Assembly (NCBI GenBank): GCA_026388095.1
Contig: JAPLKL010000051.1
Span: forward strand, 73,713-137,712
DNA length: 64,000 bases
Direction of reading: 5' to 3'
Source: Elusimicrobiota bacterium
Lineage (GTDB): Bacteria > Elusimicrobiota > Elusimicrobia > UBA1565 > UBA9628
The notes under the pieces were generated by a model, which worked only from the letters and a program-made list of their open reading frames with translations, had not been told where the DNA came from and did not search any database. Within the stretch, counting starts at the first letter, position 1. Every line of letters starts with the position of its first letter. Made by a program: the position numbers and the translations under genes. Shown one piece after another: positions 8,972 to 64,000 of this stretch.

Positions 8972-9021
8972 CCCGCAAGCGGCGCCATTTGATATTCTGT
9001 CTGCGTCAGGACTCGAGACCC

Positions 9022-9845: not shown

Positions 9846-9854
9846 AGTTCCCAA

Positions 9855-10415
9855 ATGCCCACCCACGACGACACCCTGGCGGAAAAAGAATTCCTCCTCA
9901 TCCAGGAATTATCCCGCAAGCCCAACAGCACCCAGCGCGACCTCTCCCAGAACCTGGGGCTCTCCTTGGGAACGACGAACCTCCTCATCCGCAGGCTGGC
10001 GCGCAAGGGCATCATCAAGGTCACCCAGCTCGACTGGAAGCGCACCCAGTACCTGCTGACCCTCAAGGGCGCGGTGGAGAAGATGCGCAAGGCCTACCAC
10101 TACACCCGCTACACCTTGCGCATCTTCCGCCAGATCCAGGATAACATCAACACGGTCCTCACCCGGGAACACCGCGCCGGCCGCAGGGATTTCGTCCTCG
10201 TGGCCCGCGACGAGATATTGGAGCTCGTCCGAGAGACGGCGGCGGACCTGTCCCTGGCCGACGCGACCTTCACTTTCGTGCCCGCCTTCGACGAGGTCCC
10301 TGCGCGGGCGGACTTGGTCCTTACCGCGACCTTGGAGCCGGCTCCGAGACCCGTCAACGGCCGCCGCTACATGAGCCTGGTGGACTTCGACGACATAGAT
10401 TTCCGCATCCCTTGA
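9855..10415 (+). CDS. winged-HTH (MarR-like) transcriptional regulator
   Basis: N-terminal wHTH EKEFLLIQELSRKPNSTQRDLSQNLGLSLGTTNLLIRRLARKGII. Confidence 0.55.
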   Translation: MPTHDDTLAEKEFLLIQELSRKPNSTQRDLSQNLGLSLGTTNLLIRRLARKGIIKVTQLDWKRTQYLLTLKGAVEKMRKAYHYTRYTLRIFRQIQDNINTVLTREHRAGRRDFVLVARDEILELVRETAADLSLADATFTFVPAFDEVPARADLVLTATLEPAPRPVNGRRYMSLVDFDDIDFRIP

Positions 10416-18067: not shown

Positions 18068-18119
18068 TAAGGCCTTTCCATAGGATGTGAGCCTTGGGAG
18101 CCATCAAGAGTTAAGCGCC

Positions 18120-23583: not shown

Positions 23584-24542
23584 TGCGCACCTCCGCGGCG
23601 GAGCTTCAAGGCCAGGCGCAGGGGCAGGCGCAGGGCCCAGAGCAGCAGGGCCGACGGGAAGCCCGGGACCCGGAGCAACGGCGCCGCGACGCCTTTGCGG
23701 GCGGTGGCGCGCAGGACGCGGACCCCGACCCGCGGCAGCAGTTCGAGCTGCAGGTCCACGAGGGTCAGGCCGTGGCGCGCCAGGAGCCCAGCCAGCGAAC
23801 GACGGCTGAAGAAGACGTGATGGGTCAGGTCCACGGGCAGGTTGCTGCCCCTGTGGCGACGGAAGAAATACCAATCGAAGCAGGCCTCCATGTCATCAGG
23901 TATCTCGATGAAGAGGAAGCCCCCGTCGGCGACGAGCCGGGCGCAGTCGGCCACCACGGCGTTGGGATCCAGGCAGTGCTCCAGGACGTTGCAGAGGATG
24001 ACCAGGTCGGCCTGGTCCCCGTCCGGGACCTGATGCGCGTAGCGCCGCTCTTTGATGATGGCGGGGTGACGGACCGGAGCCGCGATGGGGTCGTAGACTC
24101 GGCACGCCCGCCCGGCCGCGGCCAGTTCCACGAGGCGGAACCCATCGCGGCCGCCGATGTCGAAGACCTGGCGGATGGGACGGCCCCAGCGGGTCTCGAG
24201 ACCCTGCGTGTAATCCGCCAGGTGTCGCGCGCATGCGGACAGGAACTCCTCGTCAGCGTAGACGAGTTCCGGGGAGTCCTTGAAGCGGCTTTCCAGAGCG
24301 TGGTAGGACTCATCATAGATGCGGCCGAGCTCGGCCTCGTCGAAGAAAAGGGCGCGGTAACCGGCGTGGCAGCCGCGGCAGAGCGCCAGGACTTCTTTCG
24401 GCCTCTCTTGGCGACCGATCTTGAGGAGGTATTCCTCATAGGAGGCCTTCATGAGGCCCGCGGCGCGGGCGAGGGCTACGGATTGCCGGATCTCCAGCAG
24501 CGGCGTTTCCGCGCAGACCGGACAGCGGGAGGAGTATCTCAT
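23580..24542 (-). CDS. class I SAM-dependent methyltransferase with N-terminal zinc ribbon
   Basis: CPVC...CRGC, VFDIGGRDG SAM motif I. Confidence 0.65.
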   Translation of the reverse strand: MRYSSRCPVCAETPLLEIRQSVALARAAGLMKASYEEYLLKIGRQERPKEVLALCRGCHAGYRALFFDEAELGRIYDESYHALESRFKDSPELVYADEEFLSACARHLADYTQGLETRWGRPIRQVFDIGGRDGFRLVELAAAGRACRVYDPIAAPVRHPAIIKERRYAHQVPDGDQADLVILCNVLEHCLDPNAVVADCARLVADGGFLFIEIPDDMEACFDWYFFRRHRGSNLPVDLTHHVFFSRRSLAGLLARHGLTLVDLQLELLPRVGVRVLRATARKGVAAPLLRVPGFPSALLLWALRLPLRLALKLRRGGAQ

Positions 24543-27726: not shown

Positions 27727-28635
27727 TCATGTCTTCACGCTCATGGATGCTCGCATCTGCCGCAGGCCATCATCGACGGCGAGCGGGGCAACCCCAAGCT
27801 CGCGTTCCATGCGCTGTGTCACAAAAGCCGTGTTCGGCGGCCGGGGCGCGATGTCCGGGAAAAAAGAGCTGTCCACCGGTCTAATGAGCGAGGCGTCGAG
27901 GCTGAAAGCCTTTGCGATCTTCCGGGCGAAATCGTAGCGGCTCACTGTGTCCTTGCCGGCCAGATGGAAGATGCCTCCCGGCCGATTGTTTATCACGGCC
28001 CAGAGGGCCCGGCCACACTGCCGGTTGTACAGCGGGTTCTCGTAGACATCGGTCACGATATGCACCGCTTCCCCGCGCATGAGCTTGTCGAATATCCAGG
28101 TCACGGTGTTGGGCCGGCTCACGATATGGTTCCAGCCGTACATGAGGATGGGGCGCACGATGCAGTAGTCGGTCAGGGTCTCGCGGACCAAGCGCTCGCA
28201 TTCGACCTTGAGCAGGCCGTACTTGTTGACCGGGGAGACGGGGTCGGACTCCTTGTATGGAGGATTCTTGCCGTCGAAGACCGCGTTGGTGGAGACGTAA
28301 GCCAGATAGGTCCCGGATTTACGGCAGGCCGAAGTCACGTTGAGGGTGCCGACGATGTTGGATTCGAGGCTCTCCGCGTAGTGCTTCTCCACATAATCCA
28401 CGCTGGCGATGCCGGCCGCGTGGATGACCGCGTCGAAACAGTGCTTGACGAAGAGCCGGTCCACGGCGCGCTTGTCGCGGATGTCGAGTACCAGGCACTT
28501 TGCGTGCGAGTCCTTGACCTCGTAGGCGCGCTGGTGCAGGCTCAGGATCCGCCACCCCGCAGGCATGGTTTCCTCCATGCCTTTGCCCAGGAGTCCGGTA
28601 CCCCCGGTGATAAGGATAGTCTTCTTTTGGCTCAT
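27727..28635 (-). CDS. RmlD-like sugar-nucleotide reductase (SDR)
   Basis: ILITGGTGLLG, VNKYGLLK YxxxK, ~300 aa. Confidence 0.6.
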   Translation of the reverse strand: MSQKKTILITGGTGLLGKGMEETMPAGWRILSLHQRAYEVKDSHAKCLVLDIRDKRAVDRLFVKHCFDAVIHAAGIASVDYVEKHYAESLESNIVGTLNVTSACRKSGTYLAYVSTNAVFDGKNPPYKESDPVSPVNKYGLLKVECERLVRETLTDYCIVRPILMYGWNHIVSRPNTVTWIFDKLMRGEAVHIVTDVYENPLYNRQCGRALWAVINNRPGGIFHLAGKDTVSRYDFARKIAKAFSLDASLIRPVDSSFFPDIAPRPPNTAFVTQRMERELGVAPLAVDDGLRQMRASMSVKT

Positions 28636-29928: not shown

Positions 29929-31152
29929 TCAAGATCCAGGGGCATCGGCTGCCTTTTCCAATACTTTTCGACTATCTCCAAGTATGAATCCTAGTAATAC
30001 ATAAAACGCGATCCCGAAGGGAAGGTATCTTATGGATTCATTGAACAGACCATAGGCGAGGGTCGCTATCAAGCCTATCGCGATAATCGTGCGCATTCTT
30101 CCGGAGATTGTGAGAGGATCCGATTTCGCGGCTACATAAAATGGCGCGAAGATCTGGAATGCGAATAGCAGCAACCCGACAAACCCTCTGCGAACAAAAA
30201 CATCAAAATACTCGCTATGTGCAGACATGTTGGCGTATGTCACTCCGTCGACAATGAGCGGTCTCATGGTGTGGCCGATGCCGACCTCACCCTGTCCGAA
30301 TATTGGGACCAACCAGTCGTTCTTGGACATGGCATAGATTTCATTGTAGATGGCCAACCTTACATTGGCCGAATGGTCTCGGCGAATCCCAGCTTGGTCT
30401 CCGCGGATTGCAGAACTGACTATTCCTGTCACTCTTCCCGGATTAATAACAAATAACCCGCAATATTTCGCCATTGATAAAAAAAGCCCGCCAATCAAAT
30501 AAAAAGATAGGACCTGCAAACGTATTTTTTTACTCTTTTCGAAATATAGTAATAAAACAAGAAATACCATTAAACAGAGATATGCCGAGCGCGTCGTGGA
30601 GAGGATGAGAAGACAAATCGATATCAGCCCAAGAGCGTTCGCTGCCAATACGCGCGCTCGGCTCTGCCGCGGCTCCATAAAACAAATAGCGATGACGGCC
30701 GTGGCGAATATGAGCAATGAATTTCGCTGGGTTATTGCCACTCTTATGTTATCGTGGAATACTTCCGATACTCCCCGCAGCTCCGAGAACATGTAGAGCC
30801 ATGAGCCCATGAAGAAGCCATTCATGAAGAATATGGAGGTTTCCTGATTCTCCGAAGATGCGCGGCCGATAAAGTATGAAACCAGGAAAAAGAGCGTCAC
30901 GGCTACAGAGACGACGCGATCGTGGGTAAAGCCGGAACCCAGAATCTCGTGGATGATGGCATTCAACAAGCAATAGCCGAAATACACAATGATCACATAG
31001 TCGAATCTATTTAGTTTCAACCGAAGCCGGGATAAGAGGAAAACCAACAGAATGGGATAAAAAACAACCGGAAGCACCGGAAAATACGAATTCTGGAACC
31101 CAATGTATATTGGGATCAGTGGGATAAGGCCAGAAATGAACGCTGAAATCAA
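29929..31152 (-). CDS. Wzy-type O-unit polymerase (low-GC)
   Basis: ~10-12 TM, SAHSEYFDVFVRRGFVGL Wzy_C motif, AT-rich codon usage atypical for the locus. Confidence 0.6.
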   Translation of the reverse strand: MISAFISGLIPLIPIYIGFQNSYFPVLPVVFYPILLVFLLSRLRLKLNRFDYVIIVYFGYCLLNAIIHEILGSGFTHDRVVSVAVTLFFLVSYFIGRASSENQETSIFFMNGFFMGSWLYMFSELRGVSEVFHDNIRVAITQRNSLLIFATAVIAICFMEPRQSRARVLAANALGLISICLLILSTTRSAYLCLMVFLVLLLYFEKSKKIRLQVLSFYLIGGLFLSMAKYCGLFVINPGRVTGIVSSAIRGDQAGIRRDHSANVRLAIYNEIYAMSKNDWLVPIFGQGEVGIGHTMRPLIVDGVTYANMSAHSEYFDVFVRRGFVGLLLFAFQIFAPFYVAAKSDPLTISGRMRTIIAIGLIATLAYGLFNESIRYLPFGIAFYVLLGFILGDSRKVLEKAADAPGS

Positions 31153-31207
31153 TGGCAGGATACTTGTGCTCGACTCTTGGAGCAGAATGTTTTACAGGGC
31201 AATGGGT

Positions 31208-32029
31208 TCAAAACACCGAAAGCGGTCTTGGACTAGTAGCTATGTTCTCAAGCTTGACTCTATCAACGATCTCGGTATTCTCGCGGAAGTTCGGCTCCAT
31301 GCCAGTCAGGTCCCTGTAGGTCATGGAATCCATCGTTTCACTGCCGCCATCCAACGTAACAGTGACAAGATCGATGTTCCGCTTGGCATAATTTATGAAC
31401 TCCCGGCAAAAGTATTTGTTTCTGTCATCAATGGCACCCACCCCTTTTTCATAAAAATGCCCCCCTTTTGACGGGGAATGGGTGTAGTCCTGGCCCACAA
31501 GATAGGCCTTCTTGAACCCCAGATAGATCGCCAAAGAGATCTGGAATGTGAATGAGCCCCGATGCGAGTCTTCACGATCCCTGAATGGGTTCTTCTCTTC
31601 AAAGGGAGGCTTATAGAAACGGCTGACGAAAATGGCGTTCGAAAAGCGAGCCACTGGATAATTTGAAAAATTAATGAAAAAAGTCTTTCTAGGATTCTGA
31701 ATGATGAACTTGCGATATTCGATGGGAAGAATATGCCTGACGATCCGCCGCTTACCGTCTTCCATCCGATAGGGGCAGACCGGCCAAAACCAGAAAGGCT
31801 CGACGAGGGCGCAATACGGGGAATTAAGCGCACTGATCTCCTTATGATAGATCACAAAACTCCCCACGATCGAGGGCCGATCGGCGAACTGGCGCAGATC
31901 CATCCACTTCAAAGAAACGCCATCGCCAAAAATATAGCACTCCTGCCCCGCATGCCTCTGATAAAGCCCATCAAGTTTGGAGAGCTGCCCATGCATGACG
32001 CGAGTGAGCAGTTTCTTAAATAAGTCCAT
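31208..32029 (-). CDS. GT42/Cst-like (sialyltransferase-like, possibly Maf/DUF115-like) nonulosonate transferase candidate
   Basis: CYIFGDGVSLK resembles Cst-II IIAGNGPSLK; LVGQDYTH resembles LSGIDFYQ; low GC. Confidence 0.45.
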   Translation of the reverse strand: MDLFKKLLTRVMHGQLSKLDGLYQRHAGQECYIFGDGVSLKWMDLRQFADRPSIVGSFVIYHKEISALNSPYCALVEPFWFWPVCPYRMEDGKRRIVRHILPIEYRKFIIQNPRKTFFINFSNYPVARFSNAIFVSRFYKPPFEEKNPFRDREDSHRGSFTFQISLAIYLGFKKAYLVGQDYTHSPSKGGHFYEKGVGAIDDRNKYFCREFINYAKRNIDLVTVTLDGGSETMDSMTYRDLTGMEPNFRENTEIVDRVKLENIATSPRPLSVF

Positions 32030-39009: not shown

Positions 39010-40401
39010 CTACTTGCGCTCTTGGAGCTTGGCGGTCGCGGGCTTTTGGAAGGTTACCGTTTTGAAAACCGACTCAAGCTTAAGCCCCTGCCTTTTGGCC
39101 AACGCCTCCAATTTCCTGGTCACAGTTTCAACGAACTCCACATCGGACATGTTGGTCAGGTTCACATGGAAATCCTGCCGGTCGCCGATCCTCGATAGAT
39201 ATTCCACTTCGTCGGCTATCCGGCCGGCCTTCTTCGCCCATTCATAGATTGGGGTCCCAGGCTGAGGCAGCAGGAACCCCACACTGGGATAGATATCGCA
39301 CTCTTCACAGATATCGAGGGTGAGTTGGATGGTCTCCGGGGTTTCCTGGGGATACCCGAAAATGACGCTGGCAAGGGGGACGACATCCCCCTTCCATAGC
39401 ACCTTTGCCTGCTCGATGAACTGGTCGACGCTCATCTTCTTTCCCATCGCAGCCAGGATCTCCGGGCTCCCGTTTTCCAGGGCAAACCCGATATGATTGC
39501 AGCCGGATTCCTTCATGGCTCTTATCAAATCCAAATGCTCTGCACGGAACAACCCCGCCCGGGCGTCCGCCCCCCATTGAATCTTGAAATCCAGGGCCTT
39601 TATCGCCTTCACCCTGGATTCAACACTCTTTAAGGTGGGGAACGTCAATTCATCCCAAAATGCGACGAAGTCACACCGGTACCTGTCGTGCAGTCTTTTG
39701 ATTTCCCCGACAATGGCCGGCTCCGAATACCTTCGGTATTTCTGACCCAGAAAAACGTGGTAGCAGAAGGTGCATTGAAAAGGGCACCCGCGCGCCGAAT
39801 TCAACGGAAAAGACACCACCTTGTCCCCGGAGAAGGAATTGGAATTGACATCGGAGTATCGGGCGTATTTCTCTAGGTTGAATATATCCCAGTCAGGAAA
39901 TCCGATGGTGTCCAAATCCGGGATGATGGCGCGCTTGCCCGTGAAATTGATCTTGCCGTCCTTCTTGAAAGCAATCCCCTTGACCTCAGAGATAGGCATG
40001 CGCCGTTCCAGAGCTCTCAACAAATCCACAATCGTGATATCGGCCTCGCCCAAAACCGCAATATCCACCTCCGTGTTCGTCAACAGCAGCTCCGGGATCG
40101 AGGTCGCTGCGGAATTGCCGCAGATGATGGTCGCATCAGGCCGGATCCGCCTTATCATCCGCGAGATCTGATCGACGTATCTGTACCCGGTGACGATGCA
40201 CCCGAATGCGTACACATCGTAATCCTCTCGACCCAACATGGCCTCCAACCCGTCCACGGAGATGTTGTCGACAGCCATGTCAAACAGGCCGAACTCAAGA
40301 CCTTGCTTTTTGACGGCGGTAAGGACATATCCCAGCCCGACCGGCAAGTGCTGCCTCTTGGCCTCAGGCCTTAACGCGATGTTGATGAAGGCGATCTTCA
40401 T
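39010..40401 (-). CDS. B12-binding radical SAM enzyme (third copy)
   Basis: CPFQCTFC CxxxCxxC, N-terminal cobalamin-binding-like domain; GAGGAA RBS before internal ATG. Confidence 0.8.
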   Translation of the reverse strand: MKIAFINIALRPEAKRQHLPVGLGYVLTAVKKQGLEFGLFDMAVDNISVDGLEAMLGREDYDVYAFGCIVTGYRYVDQISRMIRRIRPDATIICGNSAATSIPELLLTNTEVDIAVLGEADITIVDLLRALERRMPISEVKGIAFKKDGKINFTGKRAIIPDLDTIGFPDWDIFNLEKYARYSDVNSNSFSGDKVVSFPLNSARGCPFQCTFCYHVFLGQKYRRYSEPAIVGEIKRLHDRYRCDFVAFWDELTFPTLKSVESRVKAIKALDFKIQWGADARAGLFRAEHLDLIRAMKESGCNHIGFALENGSPEILAAMGKKMSVDQFIEQAKVLWKGDVVPLASVIFGYPQETPETIQLTLDICEECDIYPSVGFLLPQPGTPIYEWAKKAGRIADEVEYLSRIGDRQDFHVNLTNMSDVEFVETVTRKLEALAKRQGLKLESVFKTVTFQKPATAKLQERK

Positions 40402-40417
40402 TTTGTTCCTCAGGAGA

Positions 40418-41098
40418 TCAGCGCAGCACCCTGATGGCCTGGAAAGCTTCCGCGTAAACAGTCCCGGTCTTGAACCCCCAGGTGGACGCGCAAGCCTTGA
40501 TCCCATCCAAGGATCTCGGATGCGGGGGCTCCCTCAATTCAGCCGAGTATTCCCGCATGGCCGCGAGCTTCTGCTTCATGGTCGCCGCGATGTCGTAGAA
40601 AACCTCGGGACAGAATGTGCAGGGATAAGCCCACTCGGTCGAAGATTGGACCTCAAAGGAATACAGTTCCCTCACCGGTTCGCTCGCAATGGGCCTCGTG
40701 GCGGTAAGGACCGCCTCGTAGGTCACCCGATGGTCGATGTTCAAATCCCCCGCATGGTGCGTGAACAGCAACTGCGGTTCGACCTCGGCCTTGACCTTCT
40801 CTATGGCCTTCACAATGTCCAGCAATGGCACTGTATCGAAACGGTTGTCCGGGAAGTCGAACGAGAAGCCCCTCTTGATGCCCAGGATTCGATTCGCATT
40901 CAAGGTCTGCTTCTTCAAATCTGATATTTCCCGAATCCTCTTGCTTCTGTGCCTGCGTTCATCCCTTGAGGTCGCGCCTTCGCCGAGAATCAGGCAGAAG
41001 GCCTCGTGTCCTTCCTTGACCAAGCGCGCAATCGTCCCCCCGCACCCGAGGACCTGATCATCCGGATGCGCCGCCACGACAAGTATTCTTCTGCTCAC
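40418..41098 (-). CDS. PIG-L/LmbE family deacetylase (second copy)
   Basis: AAHPDDQVLGCGG, HHAGDLNIDH. Confidence 0.8.
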   Translation of the reverse strand: MSRRILVVAAHPDDQVLGCGGTIARLVKEGHEAFCLILGEGATSRDERRHRSKRIREISDLKKQTLNANRILGIKRGFSFDFPDNRFDTVPLLDIVKAIEKVKAEVEPQLLFTHHAGDLNIDHRVTYEAVLTATRPIASEPVRELYSFEVQSSTEWAYPCTFCPEVFYDIAATMKQKLAAMREYSAELREPPHPRSLDGIKACASTWGFKTGTVYAEAFQAIRVLR

Positions 41099-51905: not shown

Positions 51906-53224
51906 CCGGGCTGAAAAAGCTCATGCCTGCGTGCTCTCCTTTTTCCCTGTTCGTCGTCATGGTGGTATGGGGCTTGAATCTCGGTTACCCCATGCACCAC
52001 CTACAGGGTGTGCGCTGGACATTGTTCGGTTATTTTCTGCCCGCTTACTACATCCTCACCGTGCTGCCGATGGCGGGAGCCGCGGCATTGGCGCTGGCAT
52101 TCAAGCGTCAGTGGACCAAATGGGAGTTGTTTTGGTGGCTATTGCCCTTGGTTTGCTTGCCCGGGATTCTGCGCAGCGGCGATCCCTTGTGGTCCACTCG
52201 CCAATGCTTCAGCTGGATAGTGCGCGGGCTCATACCCGGCGGCGTGATATTCGCAGTCGCGTATCGAAGAAGAGCGGATCGCCTGCTTCTGTATTGGATC
52301 TACCCTGTGATCATCGCCGCCTCTTTGCTGGGATTGTCAGAAATTTTTTTGGACTACAACCCGCTCGGGACGGATGCCACCGTCCCTATAACTCAAACAG
52401 CTCAGCCTGACAACCCCTTTTATCGGCCTGATGAAGCACTTCGCGTGTCTCGCAGCCCCCTTGGCACCCAAGGCAACAGGATCCCCTATGCTTCCACTCT
52501 CGTCGCCTTCTTGCCGCTAGGACTCTGGCTTTTGAGATATAAGAGGCATTTCTTCTGGGCGCACCTCTGCGCCATAGCCCTGCTATCGTCCATCCTGCTC
52601 TTGGCCCAAGTGCGCTCGGCTTGGGTGGGAATGCTGGCGGCCATGATATTGATGCATGCCTTGGGCTTGACTCGAAATCCGAGGGGAACTATCAAGATCA
52701 TGGCCGGCATATTGCTATGTCTGGGCATTCTTATGGCTTGGCCAAGGACTCAGCATCTGCTTTTGGTTAGGCTCCAGTCCTTTCAACTCTCGGAAGAAAG
52801 CATACGGCAGCGTCTCGCGGTCCTCCAGACGGCCAAGGTCTTGCAGGATCGTTGGCTGCTGGGCGTAGGATTCGGACAGTTCCCCACGGCATGCAAACCT
52901 TATTTCCACAGCACGCTGCCTTGGAGGGGAACCCCTGACAACCAATATCTGCGATGGGCCATTGAAAATGGGATATTGAGCTTCGGGCTGCTGTTGGCTT
53001 TCTTTGCCGGATTGGTCCGCGCCGGATGGCAGAAGATCAAGTTGATGGATGATCCCCAAGAGGCGGATTTCTATAAATCTTTATTGGTCGGCTGGGCGAG
53101 CATCGCCGTCACATTCTTGTTCTTCGACGGATTCTACTGGGGCGCGTGCAACATGACCTTCTGGTGCTTCCTCGGCCTGTTCGCAACCTGCCTGAAGCCC
53201 CCGGCTGAAGGTGTCCCCGCTTGA
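51902..53224 (+). CDS. Wzy_C-domain protein (WaaL-type ligase or O-oligosaccharyltransferase candidate)
   Basis: TPDNQYLRWAIENGILS motif, polytopic. Confidence 0.65.
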   Translation: MTGLKKLMPACSPFSLFVVMVVWGLNLGYPMHHLQGVRWTLFGYFLPAYYILTVLPMAGAAALALAFKRQWTKWELFWWLLPLVCLPGILRSGDPLWSTRQCFSWIVRGLIPGGVIFAVAYRRRADRLLLYWIYPVIIAASLLGLSEIFLDYNPLGTDATVPITQTAQPDNPFYRPDEALRVSRSPLGTQGNRIPYASTLVAFLPLGLWLLRYKRHFFWAHLCAIALLSSILLLAQVRSAWVGMLAAMILMHALGLTRNPRGTIKIMAGILLCLGILMAWPRTQHLLLVRLQSFQLSEESIRQRLAVLQTAKVLQDRWLLGVGFGQFPTACKPYFHSTLPWRGTPDNQYLRWAIENGILSFGLLLAFFAGLVRAGWQKIKLMDDPQEADFYKSLLVGWASIAVTFLFFDGFYWGACNMTFWCFLGLFATCLKPPAEGVPA

Positions 53225-55491
53225 TTCCGAAGAAGATCGCCTTCGTCCATGACTGGCTGACCGGGATGCGCGGCGGCGAGAAGGTGCTGGAGGCCGCCTG
53301 CGAGCTGTTCCCGGACGCCGAGATCTACACCTTGATCCACCGGCCGGACCGGATCTCCGGGCTCATCAATTCCAAAGGCGTCCACGTCTCCTGGCTGAAC
53401 TCCTTGCCGGGCGTGCATCGCTATTACCGCTACCTCCTGCCCTTGATGCCTTCGGCCATCCGAGGCTTCGACCTGGGCGATTGCGACCTGGTCTTGTCCT
53501 TCAACCATTGCGTGGCCAAGGGCGTGCCCATGACCCGGCGCCCCGGGAAGAGGCGGCCGCTGCATATCTGCTATTGCCACACGCCGATGCGCTACGTCTA
53601 TGACGAATTCCACGCCTATTTCGCGGACGGCTCCCGGGCCTGGCTGAAGAGGGGCGCCGGCTGGCTGAGGCCGCATCTCATGCGCTGGGACAAGAAGACC
53701 AGCCGCGGCGTCGATCTCTTCATCGCCAACAGCGAGAACGTCCGCCAGCGCATCCAGAAGGCCTACACCCGGGATTCCGCCGTCATCCATCCGCCCGTGG
53801 ACACCGGCTTCTTCACCCCCTCACCTCCGGGCGGCGGCGCGGGTCCGCGGCCCTACTACCTGAGCGCGGGCGCCTTGGTGCCCTACAAACGCGTGGACCT
53901 GGCCATTGCCGCTTGCCGAAGGCTGAACGCTCCGCTCAAGATCGTCGGGGTCGGGACCGAGGAGCAGCGGCTAAGACGACTGGCCGCGGGGGCGCCGGTG
54001 GAGTTCCTGGGGTGGCAAAGCGGCGAGGCCTTGCGGGAGCTCTACCGGGATTGCGAGGCCCTGCTTTTCCCGCAGAATGAGGATTTCGGCATCACCCCGG
54101 TGGAAGCCATGGCCTGCGGCAGGCCCGTGATCGCCTACAAGAAAGGCGGCGCTTTGGAGACCGTGATAGAAGGCGTGACCGGGACTCTTTTCGACGCGCA
54201 GACTCCCAAGGCCCTGGCCGACGCCATGCAGCGCGCGCGACAGACGCGCTTTGAACCAGCCGCCATACGCTCCCATGCCCTCCAGTTCGACGTCAGGCAT
54301 TTCAAATCCCGTCTTGCCGGATTCGTGGAGCAAGCCTGGGAGAAACACGCTCAGGACCAGGCGGCGGTTGAGAAAAAGGTCCGGGTGCTGCAAGTCCTCG
54401 AATGCGGCGGGCCCGGCGGCACCGGCAACCAGGTCGCCGCCATCTGCAACGGACTGGATGCAGACCGGTTCGAGACGGTCTTGGTCTATTCCGTGCGGCC
54501 CGGCAACGAGCCGGAGCAGTACCGCGCCACGGCCGCCGGAGCGCGGTCCGCCTATCATGTGCCGGAGATGGTCCGCGAGATCTCACCCTGGAATGATGCT
54601 CGCGCGTTCCTAAGGCTGATACGCATCCTACGCAAGGAACGCCCGGACGTGGTCCATGCCCATTCCTCGAAAGCCGGGGTCCTGGCGCGCTTGGCGGCCT
54701 GGCTGTGCCGGGTGCCCAGGATATACTATTCCCCCCACGGCTACTCCTTCCTGCAGACCGACAGGTCGTCTTTGGCCCGCCTCTATTACTGGCTGCTCGA
54801 GTTCTTTGTCTCCGCCATCGGCGAGATCGTGGCCGTCTCACCGGGGGAAGCGCAGCTGGCCCGGAAGCTCTCCTGGGGAAAGCCGGTCCACACGGTCTGC
54901 GACCCATATCTGGGCCCCGCCGAGCCGCCTGCCCTCCGGGCCCATGAAGGCCTGGTGGTGGGCGCCTGCGGCCGCCTGACCGAGGCCCGCAATCCGGAAG
55001 CCTTCATCCGTCTGGCCGCCGAGCTCTGCCGGCGCGGGCCGGCTGTGCGCTGCGTCTGGATCGGCTCGGGGGAGCTGGAGGCGACGGCGCGCGGTCTCGT
55101 CCAGGGACTCGGCCTCGCGGCTCGTTTCGAGTTCACCGGCTGGCTCAAGCCCGGGGAGGTGCTGGAACGGCTGCGCGGGCTGGATGTCTTCGTCCACTAC
55201 TCCCGCTGGGAGGGGCTGCCCAATGCCGTCTTGGAAGCCATGGCGCTGGGCTTGCCGGCCGTGGTCTCGGACGTGCCCGGCAACCGGGACGCGGTCCAGG
55301 CGGGAGTGACGGGCTTCTTGGCCAAGGACGAGGCCGGGCTCCGGGACGCGGTGTCCCGGCTCCTCAAGGACCCGCAGTTGCGGCGCTGCCTCGGGCAAGC
55401 GGGCCGGGAGCGCATCCGCCGGGAATTCACGCCCGCCAAGGCCATCGCGCTGCTCCAAGGGTTGTACAGGCAGGATCCGACTCCAGGGTGA
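53221..55491 (+). CDS. fused tandem GT4 glycosyltransferase (two GT-B modules)
   Basis: two successive E(x7)E-type C-terminal motifs (FGITPVEAMACGRPVIA and EGLPNAVLEAMALGLPAVVS). Confidence 0.75.
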   Translation: MIPKKIAFVHDWLTGMRGGEKVLEAACELFPDAEIYTLIHRPDRISGLINSKGVHVSWLNSLPGVHRYYRYLLPLMPSAIRGFDLGDCDLVLSFNHCVAKGVPMTRRPGKRRPLHICYCHTPMRYVYDEFHAYFADGSRAWLKRGAGWLRPHLMRWDKKTSRGVDLFIANSENVRQRIQKAYTRDSAVIHPPVDTGFFTPSPPGGGAGPRPYYLSAGALVPYKRVDLAIAACRRLNAPLKIVGVGTEEQRLRRLAAGAPVEFLGWQSGEALRELYRDCEALLFPQNEDFGITPVEAMACGRPVIAYKKGGALETVIEGVTGTLFDAQTPKALADAMQRARQTRFEPAAIRSHALQFDVRHFKSRLAGFVEQAWEKHAQDQAAVEKKVRVLQVLECGGPGGTGNQVAAICNGLDADRFETVLVYSVRPGNEPEQYRATAAGARSAYHVPEMVREISPWNDARAFLRLIRILRKERPDVVHAHSSKAGVLARLAAWLCRVPRIYYSPHGYSFLQTDRSSLARLYYWLLEFFVSAIGEIVAVSPGEAQLARKLSWGKPVHTVCDPYLGPAEPPALRAHEGLVVGACGRLTEARNPEAFIRLAAELCRRGPAVRCVWIGSGELEATARGLVQGLGLAARFEFTGWLKPGEVLERLRGLDVFVHYSRWEGLPNAVLEAMALGLPAVVSDVPGNRDAVQAGVTGFLAKDEAGLRDAVSRLLKDPQLRRCLGQAGRERIRREFTPAKAIALLQGLYRQDPTPG
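55436..55475 (+). repeat. direct repeat copy A (3' end of GT4 gene)
   Basis: about 36/40 nt identical to 56805..56843; both encode AKAIALLQGLY. Confidence 0.6.
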
Positions 55492-56658: not shown

Positions 56659-56804
56659 GCCGATGACGGGCATGAGTCTATGAAGCGATTCCAGACCACC
56701 TGACAAAGCGCAGCCGCCGCGTCGAAGGCCCAGGGGACATGCCGCCCTGGGTTTTCCCATCCAGACTCATCAAGTCGCCTCTTCAGGGTGGAAATCCCTG
56801 GAGC

Positions 56805-56843
56805 AAGGCCATCGCCCTGCTCCAAGGGTTGTATAAGCAAAAT
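56805..56843 (+). repeat. direct repeat copy B (diverged duplicate of GT4 3' end, SKAIALLQGLYKQN*)
   Basis: see copy A; brackets a ~1.33 kb insert. Confidence 0.6.
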
Positions 56844-56859
56844 TGATATAATCGCGCGG

Positions 56860-58329
56860 ATGGCGATTCCAGCGCCGCACGCTGTGGCTCCGCCCCCCGA
56901 TCGCCGGCCGGCAAGCTCGATCCGCTTGCCGCTGTGGCTGCGCCACGGGTCGCGCACGGCCCTCCACCTGGCCCTGGACGCGGCGGCCGTGGCCGCCGCT
57001 TACCGCTTGGCGTATCTCTGGCGCTTCCGATCGGAGAGATGGGTCGCAGCTTTCCCCATCCCCGGGCGCGTGCCGGGCTGGGAGCTTTACGGCCAGATGC
57101 TCTACGCCGTAGTCCCGTTGTGGCTCATGATCTTCTGGTACTCCGCGCGGCTCTACGACGCCCCCTGGATCAGCGGCGCTGACCGATTCCTCAAGATCGT
57201 CAAGGGCTGCCTCCTGGCCACCGTGGCCACCATGGCGGCCACCTACGTCTACTCGCGGCTGGAGTACTCGCGGATGATGCTCGCCATGGTCCTGCCGCTC
57301 TCCGCGGGCCTGGTCTGCCTGAGCCAGGCCCTGGTGCTGTGGGTGGACGGCTGGGTCTCCCGGCGCGAGGCCGCTTTGCCCGCGCTCCTGGTGGGGAAGG
57401 GGGCCGTGGCGAAGATCGTCAAGGAGCGCATCCGCGACCGCCACCCGGGAGCCGAAATCCTGGAGCTTCCCGAACTGCCCCCAAAAGCCGAGCTGGAACG
57501 CCTCCTGGCCGGGCGCCCCTTCTACGAGCTCATCTTGTTCAATTCCTCCTTGGCCCACGGCCGCATCCTCGAGGCGGCCGAGCTCTGCGACGCGCACGGG
57601 ATCGCCTTCAAGATGCTCCCGGACCTCCTGGAGCTGCGCCTGGGCGAAGTGCAGATGGACCACAGCCTGGGGCTTCCGGCCTACCGCATCCAGCACGCCT
57701 CCCTGACCGCGGCCAACTTCGCGGCCAAGCGCGCCTTCGACCTGTTCTTCTGTCTCCTGGTCTTCTTGGTCGCGGGCCTGCCCTGGCTGCTGGCGGCCCT
57801 GCTCATCCGCTTGGATTCCAAGGGACCGGCGCTCTACAAGCAGAAGCGCTACGGCTACAAGAGCCGGATCTTCTACGCCTACAAGTTCCGCACCATGGTC
57901 CAGGACGCGGAATCAAGGGTCGCCGCGGTCAAGGCCGCCCATGGTCCGCAAGGCGCCTTCTTCAAGGCCAAGGACGACCCGCGCATCACGCTCGTCGGCA
58001 AGTGGCTGCGGCGCTTCTCCTTGGACGAGTTCCCGCAGTTCATCAACGTGCTCAAAGGCGAGATGAGCGTGGTCGGCCCCCGGCCTTTGGCCTTGACCAC
58101 GGGCGAGGTGGAGGCGCTTCAGCGGGACTTCGGCGAGACCGCGAAGAAGCGCATGAACGCCCTGCCCGGCATCACCGGGCTTTGGCAGGTCTCGGGGCGT
58201 TCCGACGTGGCCAGCGACCAGCGCTTCGCCCTGGACATGTTCTACATCGAGCATTGGTCTTTGGGCCTGGACCTGGAGATCATCCTCAAGACGATCCCGG
58301 CCATGATCATGGCCAAGGGGGCCTATTGA
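56860..58329 (+). CDS. WbaP/PglC-type polyprenyl glycosylphosphotransferase (sugar transferase)
   Basis: C-terminal PGITGLWQVSGR and MSVVGPRP motifs; N-terminal TM block. Confidence 0.8.
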   Translation: MAIPAPHAVAPPPDRRPASSIRLPLWLRHGSRTALHLALDAAAVAAAYRLAYLWRFRSERWVAAFPIPGRVPGWELYGQMLYAVVPLWLMIFWYSARLYDAPWISGADRFLKIVKGCLLATVATMAATYVYSRLEYSRMMLAMVLPLSAGLVCLSQALVLWVDGWVSRREAALPALLVGKGAVAKIVKERIRDRHPGAEILELPELPPKAELERLLAGRPFYELILFNSSLAHGRILEAAELCDAHGIAFKMLPDLLELRLGEVQMDHSLGLPAYRIQHASLTAANFAAKRAFDLFFCLLVFLVAGLPWLLAALLIRLDSKGPALYKQKRYGYKSRIFYAYKFRTMVQDAESRVAAVKAAHGPQGAFFKAKDDPRITLVGKWLRRFSLDEFPQFINVLKGEMSVVGPRPLALTTGEVEALQRDFGETAKKRMNALPGITGLWQVSGRSDVASDQRFALDMFYIEHWSLGLDLEIILKTIPAMIMAKGAY

Positions 58330-59462
58330 AACAGACGACCACGAATCCGATCCCGCTGTTGAGCCTCAAGGCCCAGCACGAGCGCTTGGCGCCCGAGCTG
58401 CGCCAAGCGGTGCTGAAGGTGGTGGACTCCGGGACCTTCATCATGGGTCCGGAGGTCAAGCAGTTCGAGACCGAGTTCGCCGCGGCCCTGGGCGCCCGCC
58501 ACGCCGTGGGCGTATCCAACGGCACCGACGCCCTGCACGTGGCCCTGGAAGCCGTGGGCGTGGGGCCGGGCGACGAGGTGCTCGTCCCCTCCTTCACCTT
58601 CATCGCCACGGCCACCGCGGTCTCGGCCCTGGGCGCCGCTCCCGTCTTCGTGGACATCGACCCGGTCACCATGACCATGAACCCCGCCGCCGCCGCCGCC
58701 GCCGCGGGCCCCAAGACCAAGGCCATGATCCCCGTGCACCTCTTCGGCTATCCGGCGGATATGGACGAGCTTTGCGCCCTGGCGGCGGAGAAGGGCCTCA
58801 AAGTCGTGGAGGACTGCGCCCAGGCGCACTTGACCACCTACAAGGGGCGCACGGTCGGGACCATCGGGGAGGCGGGGGCCTTCAGCTTCTACCCTTCCAA
58901 GAACCTGGGCGCGGCCGGCGACGCCGGCGCGGTGACGGTGGGAGACCCCGACCTGGCCGAAGCCGTGCGCCAGCTGCGCAACTGCGGCCGCGAGACGGGC
59001 GGGGCGGCCTACCGCCACGTCCGGGTGGGGCAGAACTGCCGCCTCGACGAGCTGCAGGCCGCGGTCCTGCGCGTGAAGCTCAAGTACCTGGCGGAGTGGA
59101 CCGCCAAGCGCCGGGCCGTGGCCCTGCGCTACATCCAGAACCTCCAGGGCCTGCCCATCTTCCTGCCCGATCCGGGCCGGACCGGCACCGCGCACACCTT
59201 CCACCTCTTCGTGGTGCGCTGCGACCGGCGCGACGAGCTGGCCAAGCACCTGACCGCGCGCGGCATCGGCAACGGCGTCTACTACCCGATCCCGGTCCAC
59301 CGCCAGCCCGCTTACCAAGAGGTCCTGATCCGTCCCACGGCCCTGCCCCACACCGAGGAGGCCTGCCGCACGGCGCTGGCCCTGCCCATGTATCCGGAGT
59401 TGGAGCCGGCGGCCGTGGACGCCGTGTGCCAGGCCGTCAAGGACTTCTTCAAGGGGACCTGA
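58326..59462 (+). CDS. DegT-family sugar aminotransferase (PglE/WbpE-like; TTG start overlapping the wbaP stop)
   Basis: AFSFYPSKNLGAAGDAG catalytic Lys; AAGGGGG RBS; contains a perfect (GCC)5 tract encoding AAAAAAA. Confidence 0.8.
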   Translation: MKQTTTNPIPLLSLKAQHERLAPELRQAVLKVVDSGTFIMGPEVKQFETEFAAALGARHAVGVSNGTDALHVALEAVGVGPGDEVLVPSFTFIATATAVSALGAAPVFVDIDPVTMTMNPAAAAAAAGPKTKAMIPVHLFGYPADMDELCALAAEKGLKVVEDCAQAHLTTYKGRTVGTIGEAGAFSFYPSKNLGAAGDAGAVTVGDPDLAEAVRQLRNCGRETGGAAYRHVRVGQNCRLDELQAAVLRVKLKYLAEWTAKRRAVALRYIQNLQGLPIFLPDPGRTGTAHTFHLFVVRCDRRDELAKHLTARGIGNGVYYPIPVHRQPAYQEVLIRPTALPHTEEACRTALALPMYPELEPAAVDAVCQAVKDFFKGT

Positions 59463-59466
59463 ATTC

Positions 59467-59530
59467 GGGGACACAATACCTAACTCCCGCGGATTCAGCC
59501 CGAAAGCCTCGAATTAAGTATTGTGTCCCC
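59467..59530. promoter_or_regulatory. 13-bp perfect inverted repeat GGGGACACAATAC / GTATTGTGTCCCC with ~38-nt loop
   Basis: read directly in the 75-bp spacer between the aminotransferase and GT4 genes. Confidence 0.3.
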
Positions 59531-59537
59531 AAACTCG

Positions 59538-60644
59538 ATGCCTAGGATACTCTTCGTCTCGACTTCGACCACCATAGGCGGGGCCGAGAAGACCCTGTTC
59601 ACCTTGGCCACCCGGCTCGACGCCGAGCGGTTCCAGGTGGCCGGCGTGGTCGGCCTCAAGGCTCCCGGCCATTACGCCCAACGCCTGGCGGCGCAGGGGG
59701 TCGCGACCCGCAGCCTGGGCCTGGTCGGCTGGCCCTCGCTGCGCGACGCCGACGCCCTGGCGCGGATCATCCGGGAGACCCGGCCCGACCTGGTGCAGGC
59801 CATCATGTACCAGGCCATCCAGCTCTGCCGCTTCGTCAAGCGGCGCGCCAAGGCGCCCTTCAAGCTGGTGAGCTCCCCGAGGGTCAACTACCGCACCCGG
59901 TCCTCCTGGTCTTTGCTCGTGGACCGCTGGCTCCGGGGCGCCGACGACCTGCTCATCGCCGAGTCCGAGGCTTCCCGCGATTTCCTCACCCGCAGGCTGG
60001 GCTACGCCGCGGACCGGGTCAAGACCGTGCACAACGGAGTCGAGCTCCCCGAGGCCCCGTCCGAGGCCGAGCGCAAGCGCGCCCGCCTGCAGCTGGGCCT
60101 GCGCGAGGACGAGACGCTCCTGCTGGCCATGGGCCGGCTCGACGATCAGAAAGGCCACGGCGTGCTCATCGACGCCGTGGCCGGGCTCAAGGACTCCCGC
60201 AAGCCGCGCTGCGCCATCATCGGCGACGGCCCGCTGCGCGACAGGCTGCTGGCCCAGGTCGAGCGCCTGGGCCTGCACCGGCTCGTGCAGCTGCCCGGCG
60301 AACGCGGCGACGTCCGCTCCTGGCTCTGCGCCAGCGACATCTTCGTGCTGCCCTCGCTTTGGGAGGGGCTGCCCAACGCCCTGCTGGAGGCCATGGCCCT
60401 GGGCCTGCCGGTGGCGGCTTCCCGCGTGGACGGGGTCCCCGAGGCGGTCACTGACGGGCAGGACGGGCTGCTGGTGGCGCCCGGCGACCCTAGGGCCTTG
60501 GCCAAGGCCCTGGTCTCGCTCATGGACGACCCGGGACTGCGCCGCCGCTTGGGCCAGGCCGCGCGGACCCGCGTGGCCGAAAGCTTCACCCTGCCCGCCA
60601 TGCTCGCCGGCTATGAGGCCGCATACCGGGATGTCCTGACCTAG
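59538..60644 (+). CDS. GT4 glycosyltransferase
   Basis: EGLPNALLEAMALGLPVAAS. Confidence 0.8.
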   Translation: MPRILFVSTSTTIGGAEKTLFTLATRLDAERFQVAGVVGLKAPGHYAQRLAAQGVATRSLGLVGWPSLRDADALARIIRETRPDLVQAIMYQAIQLCRFVKRRAKAPFKLVSSPRVNYRTRSSWSLLVDRWLRGADDLLIAESEASRDFLTRRLGYAADRVKTVHNGVELPEAPSEAERKRARLQLGLREDETLLLAMGRLDDQKGHGVLIDAVAGLKDSRKPRCAIIGDGPLRDRLLAQVERLGLHRLVQLPGERGDVRSWLCASDIFVLPSLWEGLPNALLEAMALGLPVAASRVDGVPEAVTDGQDGLLVAPGDPRALAKALVSLMDDPGLRRRLGQAARTRVAESFTLPAMLAGYEAAYRDVLT

Positions 60645-60732
60645 GATCCGCCTCGGAATCCCCCCCTAAGCACGGCGAATAGGAGTCACTCGCTTCGTTC
60701 CCAGAAGCCCAAAAAATATATACTGACGACCT

Positions 60733-62862
60733 ATGGTCGAGGTGCGGCCCAAGGCGCGTGTGCTGGCGCTGAGCTTGGCGGGCTTGGCGGTCTTCCTGGC
60801 GTGGGAGGCCTTGGCCTTGCGCTCCTATGTGCGCGTGGAGAGCCGGCCGCCGGCCTGGGACCAGGCGATCCATCTCGAGATCGCCCTGGACTATCGCAAT
60901 GCCATCCGGGCGGGCAATTGGTCCGAGGTCATCCACCTGGCCCCCAAGCCCGGGATGCCGCCTTTCCCGCCGCTCTATCAGCTCCTGCTCAAGACCGCTT
61001 ACGTCAGCTCCGACCCGGCCAATGCGTCCCTGTGGCTGAATTGGTTCTATCTCGCCATCCTTTGTGTCGCGCTGTTCGGGCTGGCTTGGCGGTTCCGCCC
61101 CGACGAGACGGCTCTGCTTTGCGTGGTGATCTTCGCCGGCTCGCCGGCGGTGCAGGACCTTCTGCATACCCAGCTCGTGGACCTGTCGCTGGTGGCCTGG
61201 GCCGCGGCGGCCTACTGGGCCTTCATGCGCAGCGAGGATTTCCAGCGCTGAGGCGGGTCCCTCGCCTTCGGGGCCCTCTTCGCCCTGGGCATGATGCACA
61301 AGTGGAGCTTCTTCAGCTATTTCCTGCCGATCTACTACCTCGCCCTCAAGGCTCTGGCCCGGCCGGAGAGCCGCCGCCAGGTCCTGGCCGCCGCCGGGGT
61401 CTCCTTGGCGATCTTCATGCCCTGGTATGCGGTCCATCTACCCATCATAATCCCGCGGCTGTTCCAGGCTTCGGCTGATTTCGCGGTCCCATTCTGGCGC
61501 GGGACCGCGGTGCTCAACTATCTTGGGCAGATGGCGGACGGCTTGGGGCCGCTGTTCCTCGTCCTCTCCTTGGTCGGGATCTGCGTCCCTCAGAAACGGC
61601 GGGACTGGGACCGCCGCTGGGTGCTGGCGGCCTGGTTCATATCGTCGTATGTATTCTGGACGATCGTGCCGAACCGGCAGCTGCGCTACCTGCTGCCCGG
61701 TCTGCCGGCCTTGGCCGTGGCGGGCATCGGCGCCTGGCCGTGGCCCAGGGCCGTGGTGTGGGGCCTGGCCGCGGTGCAGTTCTTCACCATGCTCAACTTC
61801 ACTTCCGGCTGGCTGCGGCCGATCTCCATCCCCGTGCCCATGCGCAGCGTGACGCTGTTCCCCAGCCAGCCCCCGTCGCGAGACGACTGGAAGATCGGGG
61901 AGATCCTTTCGGAAGCCGAGGCGCGCGCCGACCCGAGCCGGCCCATCGCCGATGTCACCTTGGTCGCCAACGACACCTTCTTCAATTGCGTGAACTTCAA
62001 CTGGCTGACCAAGCTCCGCGAGCTTGCGCACGTGCAGATCCGCGGGGTCAACAGCCGGCTGTGCGAATTCTCCCAGTTCCTGGTGCTCAAAGACGGCTAC
62101 CTGGGGCCCCCGAGCGTCATCGGCCCTCTGCCGAAAGCGTCCGAGACCGTCAAGGACCCCCAGGGCTGGTTCGGGCGGTTCTATGAGCCGGTCCGCCGCT
62201 GGCCGCTGCCCGACGGATCGACGGCGGTGCTCTACGAGCAGAGGCACCTGGCGCGGCCGCCCTTCCCGGGCCGGAGGTTCGTATCCCGGCACTACGCCGA
62301 CGGGGCGTTCGCGGCCGAGGACCTGGTCGTCGAGCTCGGGGCTTGGGACGCGCAGCGCGGCGTCTACCGGCGGGCCAAGGTCTCGGCCCGCGAGGTGCAC
62401 TTGCGCGGCCTGCGCCTCAACGACCTGCGCTTGGAGATGGAAGGACTGCTTTTCGTGCCCGTCTCCACAGGCAGCCTGAACGCTTTGGGGGAGCTGCGCT
62501 TCCTCAAGATGGACACCTTGCGCATCGAGAAGCTCCGAGTCGATGGCGCCGCGCTGCGGGCTTTCCTGGAGAACCGCGTCCCGGGCCTGCGCATCTCGGA
62601 GTTGGACCTGGATAAGACCCTGAAGCTGCGCGGGGCTTTCCGGGGCTTCCCGCTCTCCGCGGAAATCGCCGCGGAGATCCTCGGCTCGTCCGCCATCCAG
62701 ATCGGCCTTCGGGAGGTCCGGCTCGGAGCCGCGCCGGTGCCCGGATTCCTGCTGCGGCCTTTGCGCAGCTTCACGCAGCCTTTTGTGCCCACCCGGGATA
62801 TGCCTTTCTCCATCCGGGTCGCGGGGCTCACCGTCGCAGGCGGCTGGTTGTCGGTCCCCTGA
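60733..62862 (+). pseudogene. GT-C fold (GT39/GT83, ArnT/PMT-like) glycosyltransferase interrupted by one in-frame TGA at 61249-61251
   Basis: ORFs 60733..61251 and 61291..62862 share a frame and read ...SEDFQR*GGSLAFGALFALGMMHKW... across a hydrophobic segment; combined ~709 aa fits the GT-C family. Confidence 0.55.
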
Positions 62863-62956
62863 CAGCTTCCCTTCAGGTCACTGCGGCCGTCTATCGGCGC
62901 GGCCGTCGCTCTCGGCTCCTTATTCTCGATAGTGTTTTATCCCCCGCGAAAATGTC

Positions 62957-62985
62957 TTGACACTGTAACACGTCACAGATATACT
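62957..62985 (+). promoter_or_regulatory. consensus sigma-70 promoter TTGACA-17-TATACT
   Basis: read directly; ~35 nt upstream of GTG 63020. Confidence 0.5.
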
Positions 62986-63019
62986 CAGAACGCTCGAACG
63001 CAAGATTGGCCGATTCCGC

Positions 63020-64000
63020 GTGCCGCGTTCGGGCATCCACGCGCATGCCGAGGCGCGGGACCGGGACGACATCTTCTTGCGACTGCGACGACTGCGCCTC
63101 CTGGCCTTATGCGTATTGTTATTATCGCTCGCGCCGGCGCGCGATGCGGCATACGGCCAATTCTCCGCCCCCTGGGACCCGGATTTCTCCCAGCAGGCCA
63201 AGCCCTCGGCGCCTCCTCCGGAGGAAGCGGCTGAGGGCCGTCCGGCCTCTGCGGCGCCCGCGGCACCCGAGGCCGAAGCGGCCCCGGTCGTCGTCATCCC
63301 GGGAGCCGGGCCCTTCTTGCTCCTGGACCGGCCGGACCCCAAGCACATCCTGGAGCCGCTGGCGCCAGCGGCGGGCCAGGGCCCGCCGTCTACGGAGGGC
63401 GCCGTTGTTCCTCTCCGGCAGGGGACGGCCCATGAATTCCTTGACTTCGTGGATGGCCTCAAGCCCTTCGCCTATCGCCCGGAGCGCCTCACCCAGGCGC
63501 GCACCCGCATCGAGCAGGGTCTGGCTCCGAGCGAGCCCTCGCCGTTCCTGGGCTCGGAAGCCGAGGAGCTCGCGATCTCCACCGCGGCGTCGCTCCTGCC
63601 GCCCCCTCCGGAGCTGGAGATGCCGGCCCAGCAGATGAGCCTCTCCATCACGGGCCGCAAGATCATCGGGTTCAACTTCTCCGAAAAGCGCTACCTGCAT
63701 GACCAGAGCCAGACCGGCCGGCCCGCCAGCGCCAGCGTATGGGACATCCAGCAGCAGATGCAGCTGCGCATGCAGGGCAAGGTGGGGCCCAAGATCACCG
63801 TGAACGTGGACTACGACGACACCAAGACCAACCAGCAGGACATCTCCATCGTCTATCAGGGCGACCCCAACGAGGTGGTCCAGAACGTCTCCTTCGGCGA
63901 CATCGACCTCTCCTTGCCCCCCACGGAATTCGTCTCCTACAACAAGCAGCTCTTCGGCATCCGGGCGGATATCAAGTTCAAGGGCCTCAAAGCCTCCTTC
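63020..64000 (+). CDS. secreted protein, 3'-truncated at window end (start GTG 63020 or TTG 63077)
   Basis: open frame 2 to window end; RLRRLRLLALCVLLLSLAPA signal-like N-terminus, Pro/Ala-rich linker, then conserved-looking domain. Confidence 0.4.
   Translation, partial: MPRSGIHAHAEARDRDDIFLRLRRLRLLALCVLLLSLAPARDAAYGQFSAPWDPDFSQQAKPSAPPPEEAAEGRPASAAPAAPEAEAAPVVVIPGAGPFLLLDRPDPKHILEPLAPAAGQGPPSTEGAVVPLRQGTAHEFLDFVDGLKPFAYRPERLTQARTRIEQGLAPSEPSPFLGSEAEELAISTAASLLPPPPELEMPAQQMSLSITGRKIIGFNFSEKRYLHDQSQTGRPASASVWDIQQQMQLRMQGKVGPKITVNVDYDDTKTNQQDISIVYQGDPNEVVQNVSFGDIDLSLPPTEFVSYNKQLFGIRADIKFKGLKASF

Follow-up and report, generated by a model that had tools for sequence, protein, structure and literature searches.

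A premature TGA at an invariant tryptophan codon of a GT-C glycosyltransferase gene in an Elusimicrobiota bacterium

We analysed 64,000 nucleotides of DNA from an Elusimicrobiota bacterium (GenBank assembly GCA_026388095.1, contig JAPLKL010000051.1, forward-strand positions 73,713 to 137,712), a stretch that we call the window and number from its first letter. Close to its end lies a gene for a GT-C membrane glycosyltransferase that is complete but for one in-frame TGA. We conclude, with a probability of roughly three in four, that this TGA is a real and very recent TGG-to-TGA nonsense substitution at the codon of an invariant tryptophan, Trp173, and that the gene is a nascent pseudogene or loss-of-function allele.

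Results

A single TGA interrupts one conserved reading frame

The frame runs from an ATG at 60733 to a TGA at 62860-62862 and comprises 709 codon positions (172 + 1 + 536), of which 708 are sense. It reads ...AYWAFMRSEDFQR, then TGA at 61249-61251, then GGSLAFGALFALGMMHKWSFF..., and this TGA is its sole internal stop; there are no frameshifts. Positions 60733 and 61291, where the two annotated pieces begin, are both 1 modulo 3, so the pieces share a frame, and 60733-61251 and 61252-62862 make up one gene. The pieces are deposited as MCX5796598.1 (locus tag NTY77_13975), on a 151,020-bp contig of a metagenome-assembled genome (MAG), and MCX5796599.1, the gene that follows it (Table 1). The second piece encodes those transmembrane helices that the first lacks, together with a soluble alpha/beta domain and a beta-rich, putatively LmeA-like domain. 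No second copy of the glycosyltransferase gene is present within the window.

Because the G+C content of the gene region is about 68%, an open frame by itself proves little, and the claim of continuity therefore rests on homology. A protein search of about 5.8 billion sequences yielded 280 homologues, and the best 120 of these 280 were used for the counts given here. Nearly all of the 120 are full length (about 700-737 amino acids) and cover 96-100% of the fused query, and every one aligns both before and after the stop, the E-values reaching as low as 0. Those with a source name all come from Elusimicrobiota MAGs; the closest among the matches listed, P0001 and P0002, are 81% and 79% identical to the window protein. 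The Pfam family PMT_2 (PF13231) likewise matches across the stop, at residues 91-231 of the fused sequence (31.7 bits against a cut-off of 26.1), and this match needs the fused pieces, as each fragment alone is without one. These alignments bear out an earlier note, made from the DNA alone, which had described an intact frame of about 709 amino acids with a single TGA at 61249-61251 and no frameshift, and had offered a recent nonsense mutation, a sequencing error or programmed readthrough as explanations.

The stop replaces an invariant tryptophan

In the column occupied by the TGA, 118 of the 120 homologues have tryptophan; the remaining two have valine and leucine, one each. The surroundings are conserved as well, with an invariant phenylalanine three residues upstream and a conserved S-L-A-F-G downstream, and W173 is invariant in a curated alignment of 43 sequences (A1).

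Since protein databases favour intact reading frames, we also examined the site at the DNA level, using 77 loci from GTDB species representatives together with contigs of the closest relatives, 81 loci altogether. Where the window has GAT TTC CAG CGC TGA GGC, the closest relatives' contigs have GAT TTC/T CAG CGC TGG GGC, a single G-to-A transition at the third position of the Trp codon. Loci L002 to L005 have TGG at the site in a local context nearly identical to that of the window, and TGG is found in 63 of the 81 loci overall. In distant members of the family (about 21-49% identity) the codon there is one for Arg, Lys, Phe, Val or Leu. The earlier note had suggested aligning orthologues to see which residue falls at the TGA, with TGG among the codons one change away; the answer is tryptophan, by just such a change.

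No relative has a stop codon at this position among about 80 DNA loci and 120 proteins, the sole case, L001, being the window's own sequence, and no other locus of the DNA set has an in-frame stop anywhere in the gene. The stop is unique to the window's lineage and therefore, as far as these sequences indicate, is a one-off rather than a conserved feature.

Lesions of other kinds occur elsewhere in the gene in three loci of the DNA set. A MAG copy, L061 (JAHFCF010000018.1), has an internal deletion of approximately residues 87-299; L077 (CP096137.1), the second paralogue of a complete Elusimicrobiota genome, carries a frameshift; and L060 has an insertion. The lesions in L077 and L061 suggest that copies of this family are lost now and then.

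The gene is undecayed apart from the stop

By the method of Nei and Gojobori, the ratio of nonsynonymous to synonymous substitution rates (dN/dS) is 0.31 between the window gene and its two closest relatives and 0.27 between those relatives themselves. When the gene is divided at the stop, comparisons with the window gene give 0.20-0.21 upstream and 0.34-0.36 downstream, and the relatives compared with each other give 0.23 and 0.28. Because the relatives show the same direction between themselves, the higher downstream value is not specific to the window gene. We then considered 105 highly conserved columns, those with the same residue in at least 95% of the family, 33 of them upstream of the stop and 72 downstream. 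The window protein departs from the consensus at 2 of these columns, compared with a mean of 2.9 and a median of 1 among the 120 homologues. Tajima relative-rate tests with four outgroups were non-significant: the window lineage has no excess of change, whether for the whole protein or for the part downstream of the stop.

A pseudogene of long standing is rejected on these grounds: dN/dS, conserved columns and relative rates are all normal, and there is a single disruption. Because the gene is undecayed apart from the stop, its inactivation, if any, must be very recent. Two readings fit: a very recent mutation, or a gene still under selection, with the stop missing from most cells or suppressed. 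The first of these is the recent nonsense mutation that the earlier note had listed, and it gains support from the aligned Trp, the single transition from TGG, the uniqueness of the stop and the absence of decay.

Two assemblies carry the same base

We looked for the TGA in a second assembly. In the Logan assembly of run SRR20698638, a 4,211-bp contig (SRR20698638_4278) matches window positions 58582-62792 at 100% identity, TGA included. The NCBI MAG and Logan, which come from two different assemblers, agree on the base at 61251, and the site lies in neither a homopolymer nor a repeat. The organism was found solely in this run and its NCBI MAG: a search of JGI metagenomes and GTDB representatives recovered no conspecific contig with either allele. 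Seven JGI metagenome loci served this conspecific search alone and were left out of the codon counts.

The TGA could be an artefact of sequencing, assembly or consensus building, or a population polymorphism, in which case TGG and an intact gene would be present in the organism or in the majority of its cells. The perfect conservation of the rest of the gene, as in a functional gene, fits this explanation, and a MAG consensus can fix minority variants; both assemblies, moreover, are probably derived from one run. Substitution errors in short reads, however, are random and are lost in consensus building, the two assemblers give the same base within 4,211 bp of perfect identity, and the site offers no homopolymer or repeat to provoke an error. 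Nor does the assembly look generally error-prone, judging by the other places in the window where adjacent open reading frames (ORFs) share a frame. The three such pairs that we examined, separated by stops at 1707-1709, 11404-11406 and 27727-27729, were each judged to be two genes, which have start codons of their own and belong to different domain families. An artefact or polymorphism is thus unlikely in our estimation, and the sequencing error proposed in the earlier note has become improbable in its simplest form, a mistake by a single assembler, now that the Logan assembly has the same base.

Several considerations nevertheless weigh against a real loss of the gene. The Logan and MAG assemblies most likely stem from the same reads, making them separate computations and not separate samples; their agreement rules out an error by one assembler, not an effect at the level of reads or of the population. 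The base is known from a consensus, and a minority TGG allele or a rare systematic error may be present. The organism is represented by a single sample, so any persistence of the allele is hypothetical. A lack of further damage is equally to be expected if the gene still works, either because most cells have an intact allele or because the stop is efficiently suppressed. Finally, an intact paralogue (see below) is placed in the same cell on the strength of metagenomic binning.

Most coding-like ORFs of the window end in TGA

Among 58 coding-like ORFs of the window, defined from stop to stop and by their pattern of G+C at third codon positions, the stop codon is TGA in 36 cases, TAG in 13 and TAA in 9. 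The interrupted gene itself ends in a TGA, which sits at the C-terminus of the family (...LSVP), and 117 of the 120 homologues end at the same residue. We found no tRNA genes in the window. The 91 nucleotides around and after the internal TGA fold no better than shuffled sequences (z = -0.72), and the region 60400-63200 has no Rfam match, including to the selenocysteine insertion sequence (SECIS), at E <= 1. Cysteine occurs at the TGA site in none of the 120 homologues. The G+C content of the window is 62%, with blocks of 2 kb ranging from 48 to 74%.

These data bear on whether the UGA is translated by a programmed or enhanced mechanism (a regulated site, a suppressor tRNA or a UGA-reading tRNATrp) that would supply substantial full-length enzyme with Trp173. 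Such decoding would suit an undecayed gene whose stop falls exactly on a Trp codon, because near-cognate tRNATrp inserts tryptophan at UGA; in Escherichia coli, Trp-tRNATrp competes against RF2 (release factor 2), with readthrough that is generally about 10^-3 to 10^-2 and was 2-4% for one reporter (PMC10570021). Suppressor tRNAs, or tRNATrp with a 4-bp anticodon stem, do occur in a small fraction of bacteria that use the standard code; a 2026 survey found suppressors in 0.3% of the bacterial genomes analysed, in standard-code species (PMC13092985). The coincidence with Trp is uninformative, however, as no codons turn into TGA more readily than those for Trp. Programmed sites are recognised by their conservation, yet this stop is conserved in none of the roughly 80 loci and 120 proteins, the fold downstream is ordinary and matches no Rfam family, and UGA is both the commonest terminator of the window and the one that ends this same gene at its ancestral end. 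We therefore reject a programmed readthrough site, given an unconserved stop and no stimulatory RNA structure downstream, and the option to that effect in the earlier note finds no support. It is likewise very improbable that the lineage reads UGA to an appreciable degree, by a suppressor tRNA or a tRNATrp variant, while keeping it as its main terminator. If it did, the gene would still work, and the stop might even serve to lower the level of the enzyme.

It is just as doubtful that the two pieces work as a split enzyme, in which the 172-residue piece and a 523-residue piece re-initiated at the ATG at 61291 would form an active two-chain GT-C protein. That ATG lies 13 codons past the stop and is accepted by gene callers, and the absence of a Shine-Dalgarno sequence in front of it is indecisive because such sequences are weak throughout the genome. 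A restart at M186, however, would lose residues 173-185, including the conserved L177, F179 and G180; no such split exists in the 120 proteins or about 80 loci, and we found no evidence of translational coupling. A functional two-chain enzyme is unlikely because the restart deletes most of helix 173-189 and no member of the family is so divided.

Reassignment of TGA throughout the genome (code 4, with TGA as Trp, or code 25, with TGA as Gly) and selenocysteine insertion at the site are refuted within the window and have next to no probability: an in-frame TGA aligned with Trp is all that speaks for either, whereas TGA is the commonest terminator and closes this very gene at the C-terminus of its homologues, the genome is GC-rich, and the homologues have Trp and never Cys, with no SECIS hairpin or Rfam match. 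Lineages that use code 4 or 25 are not known to be GC-rich like this genome. The view in the earlier note that TGA is a normal stop elsewhere, and global recoding unlikely, thus holds within the window.

The gene encodes a GT-C glycosyltransferase with a putative LmeA-like domain

As a stand-in for the interrupted window protein, we used an AlphaFold2 model of its orthologue P0001 (mean pLDDT confidence 88.8, pTM score 0.85). In the model, about 17 helices extend to residue ~356 and are followed by an alpha/beta domain (~360-510) and a beta-rich one (~510-707). A fold search with it gave 24 PDB matches at E <= 1e-3, all of them GT-C enzymes, the best being ArnT (5F15 and 5EZM), followed by ALG12/ALG9, STT3, AftD, AftA, Pmt4 and DPY19. 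W173 is the first residue of a predicted helix, 173-189, which follows a short loop.

At the sequence level, a search of the PDB with the family profile detected no relative, and a search of NCBIfam gave no match. NCBI's automated naming calls some homologues 'glycosyltransferase family 39 protein'. Enzymes of CAZy family GT39 use Dol-P/Und-P-Man as donor, and those of GT83 use Und-P-L-Ara4N. The GT-C assignment in the earlier note is therefore borne out at the level of fold. Its finer label, GT39/83, is at best a loose fit: the fold is GT-C and ArnT the best structural match, but in sequence the likeness to PMT_2 is marginal and no relative was detected in the PDB.

The N-terminal fragment includes a conserved first-loop motif, RPPxW(D/E)QxxH.E...D. 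All 118 sequences that reach position 43 have D or E there, and 116 of 120 have D53; the two residues lie just past the first transmembrane helix. At the other end of the protein, the Pfam family LmeA (PF11209) scores 26.5-27.2 bits, just below its cut-off of 27.3, and several homologues have precomputed PF11209 matches. The family is found almost exclusively in Elusimicrobiota. Judging by the model, the LmeA-like beta-rich domain (residues ~510-707) is predicted to be the C-terminal domain of the GT-C glycosyltransferase, in a fusion that appears conserved across Elusimicrobiota. The earlier note mentions neither this domain, which would make up about the last 200 residues, nor the intact paralogue described below.

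Genomic context and an intact paralogue

The whole window is a large glycan-biosynthesis region, and the interrupted gene is the last enzyme of a conserved block in it (Table 1). The order of this block (double GT4, Bac_transf, DegT, GT4, GT-C, giant secreted protein) recurs in L003.

Table 1. Features of the conserved block and of the interrupted gene, in window coordinates
Feature	Position	Strand	Basis or remark
Double GT4 protein, first gene of conserved block	53221-55491		
Bac_transf sugar-phosphate transferase	56788-58329	+	Pfam
DegT-type aminotransferase	58341-59462	+	Pfam
GT4 glycosyltransferase	59538-60644	+	Pfam
GT-C glycosyltransferase gene, complete but for one in-frame TGA, 709 codon positions	60733..62862	+	Full-length alignment to Elusimicrobiota homologues; ends at ancestral TGA
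N-terminal fragment, 172 aa, MCX5796598.1 'hypothetical protein'	60733..61251	+	First transmembrane helices and first-loop motif
Premature TGA at invariant Trp (W173)	61249..61251	+	TGG to TGA, one G-to-A transition
C-terminal fragment, 523 aa, MCX5796599.1 'LmeA family phospholipid-binding protein'	61291..62862	+	Begins at first ATG past the stop
Large secreted protein, start, running off the window	63119..64000	+	71% identity over 295 aa to N-terminus of the 1911-aa protein after the orthologue in L003

The MAG also contains an intact paralogue, P0016 (NTY77_16740), of 709 amino acids and 53% identity, which was recovered from the same run as well (locus L090, 5607-7736, on Logan contig SRR20698638_3895). 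Its neighbours are two GMPPB-like (mannose-1-phosphate guanylyltransferase-like) nucleoside triphosphate (NTP)-transferases, a phosphomannomutase and a 489-residue PMT_2 protein, a neighbourhood that hints at a mannose donor for the family.

In the window, the gap between the GT4 and GT-C genes (60645-60732) is 88 nucleotides long and includes an AT-rich stretch, aaaaaatatatactga. In L003 to L005, a gene of 497 amino acids without a Pfam match lies on the opposite strand between these two genes (L003, 8405-9898). The P0001 gene has other surroundings: in L002 (JGI Ga0455671_0029535, 1-10000) it is outside the conserved glycan cluster and adjoins genes for ParA/ParB, RepA_C, a BrnT/CopG toxin-antitoxin pair, a resolvase and an IS91-type transposase. 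Given its place beside these plasmid and mobile-element genes, the glycosyltransferase gene may move horizontally.

Three further observations concern other parts of the window. The ORF at 69-1709 encodes 546 amino acids that resemble, by eye, an FkbH-like HAD-type domain protein, and its TGA abuts a same-frame stretch leading toward a gene for an NAD-dependent epimerase (ATG at 1938); the 228-nucleotide gap and the distinct sequences led us to judge the two to be separate genes. At 29929-32029 there is an island of low G+C content (0.48, against 0.53-0.74 elsewhere) containing a Wzy_C (O-antigen polymerase/ligase-like) gene and a gene of 273 amino acids without a Pfam match; the island resembles a cassette that entered the glycan region by horizontal transfer. 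Interspersed with the sugar-nucleotide and glycosyltransferase genes are three that encode B12-binding radical SAM enzymes (18084-19595, 21652-23892 and 39010-40533), unusually many for a polysaccharide locus, which suggests methylated or otherwise modified sugars.

Discussion

If the TGA is indeed a fresh nonsense mutation, translation would end after residue 172, leaving the first few helices and about one-third of the conserved positions, and the enzyme would be essentially lost. Its loss could be tolerated thanks to the intact paralogue P0016; surface-glycan genes are commonly dispensable or counter-selected, which would also make the loss tolerable. The sole plausible source of full-length protein would be unprogrammed readthrough of UGA, the leakiest of the stop codons, by Trp-tRNATrp, a process that reaches about 0.1-4% in E. 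coli reporters and would leave traces of native protein. Readthrough with Trp would give the wild-type protein, DFQR-W-GGSLAFGALFALGMMHK (DFQR-W-GGSLAFG) across the site. Because such restoration is a generic property of any change from TGG to TGA, it is no evidence for a programmed event.

A practical consequence is a correction to annotation: MCX5796598.1 and MCX5796599.1 are the two halves of one gene with a premature stop. Beyond this, the gene offers a small example of a fresh loss-of-function allele in the surface-glycan cluster of an uncultured bacterium, an ordinary event with no bearing on open questions about the genetic code or recoding. The family itself, an apparent fusion of a GT-C enzyme with an LmeA-like domain and without a characterised member, may merit more attention than the stop codon.

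The closest parallel to the interrupted gene is with nascent nonsense pseudogenes in bacterial surface-polysaccharide loci, in which a glycosyltransferase is likewise inactivated by one base while the cluster is otherwise intact, no further decay has set in and a paralogue exists elsewhere; the window case differs in being known from one MAG sequence alone. With natural opal suppression in E. coli it shares the UGA codon and an inserted tryptophan that is the ancestral residue. That suppression is a background process at the level of a per cent or below (PMC10570021), and the window sequence carries no signal of enhancement. The reassigned UGA of codes 4 and 25, and selenocysteine insertion, are similar in placing an in-frame UGA within a conserved coding sequence, but the window uses UGA as its main terminator, has no SECIS, and its homologues have Trp and not Cys. 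As for the enzyme, it resembles ArnT (GT83) and the protein O-mannosyltransferases (GT39, PMT_2), GT-C transferases that depend on polyprenyl-phosphate sugars, in the multi-helix N-terminal membrane domain of GT-C proteins, with ArnT as its best match and a PMT_2 score above the cut-off. The conserved acidic residue in the first loop (D/E43) may be a further likeness, if it is the counterpart of the catalytic Asp of ArnT or the protein O-mannosyltransferases. It differs from both in sequence, with about 14% identity in structural alignments, and in architecture, since the window family adds a soluble domain and a C-terminal, putatively LmeA-like beta-rich domain to the membrane-embedded part.

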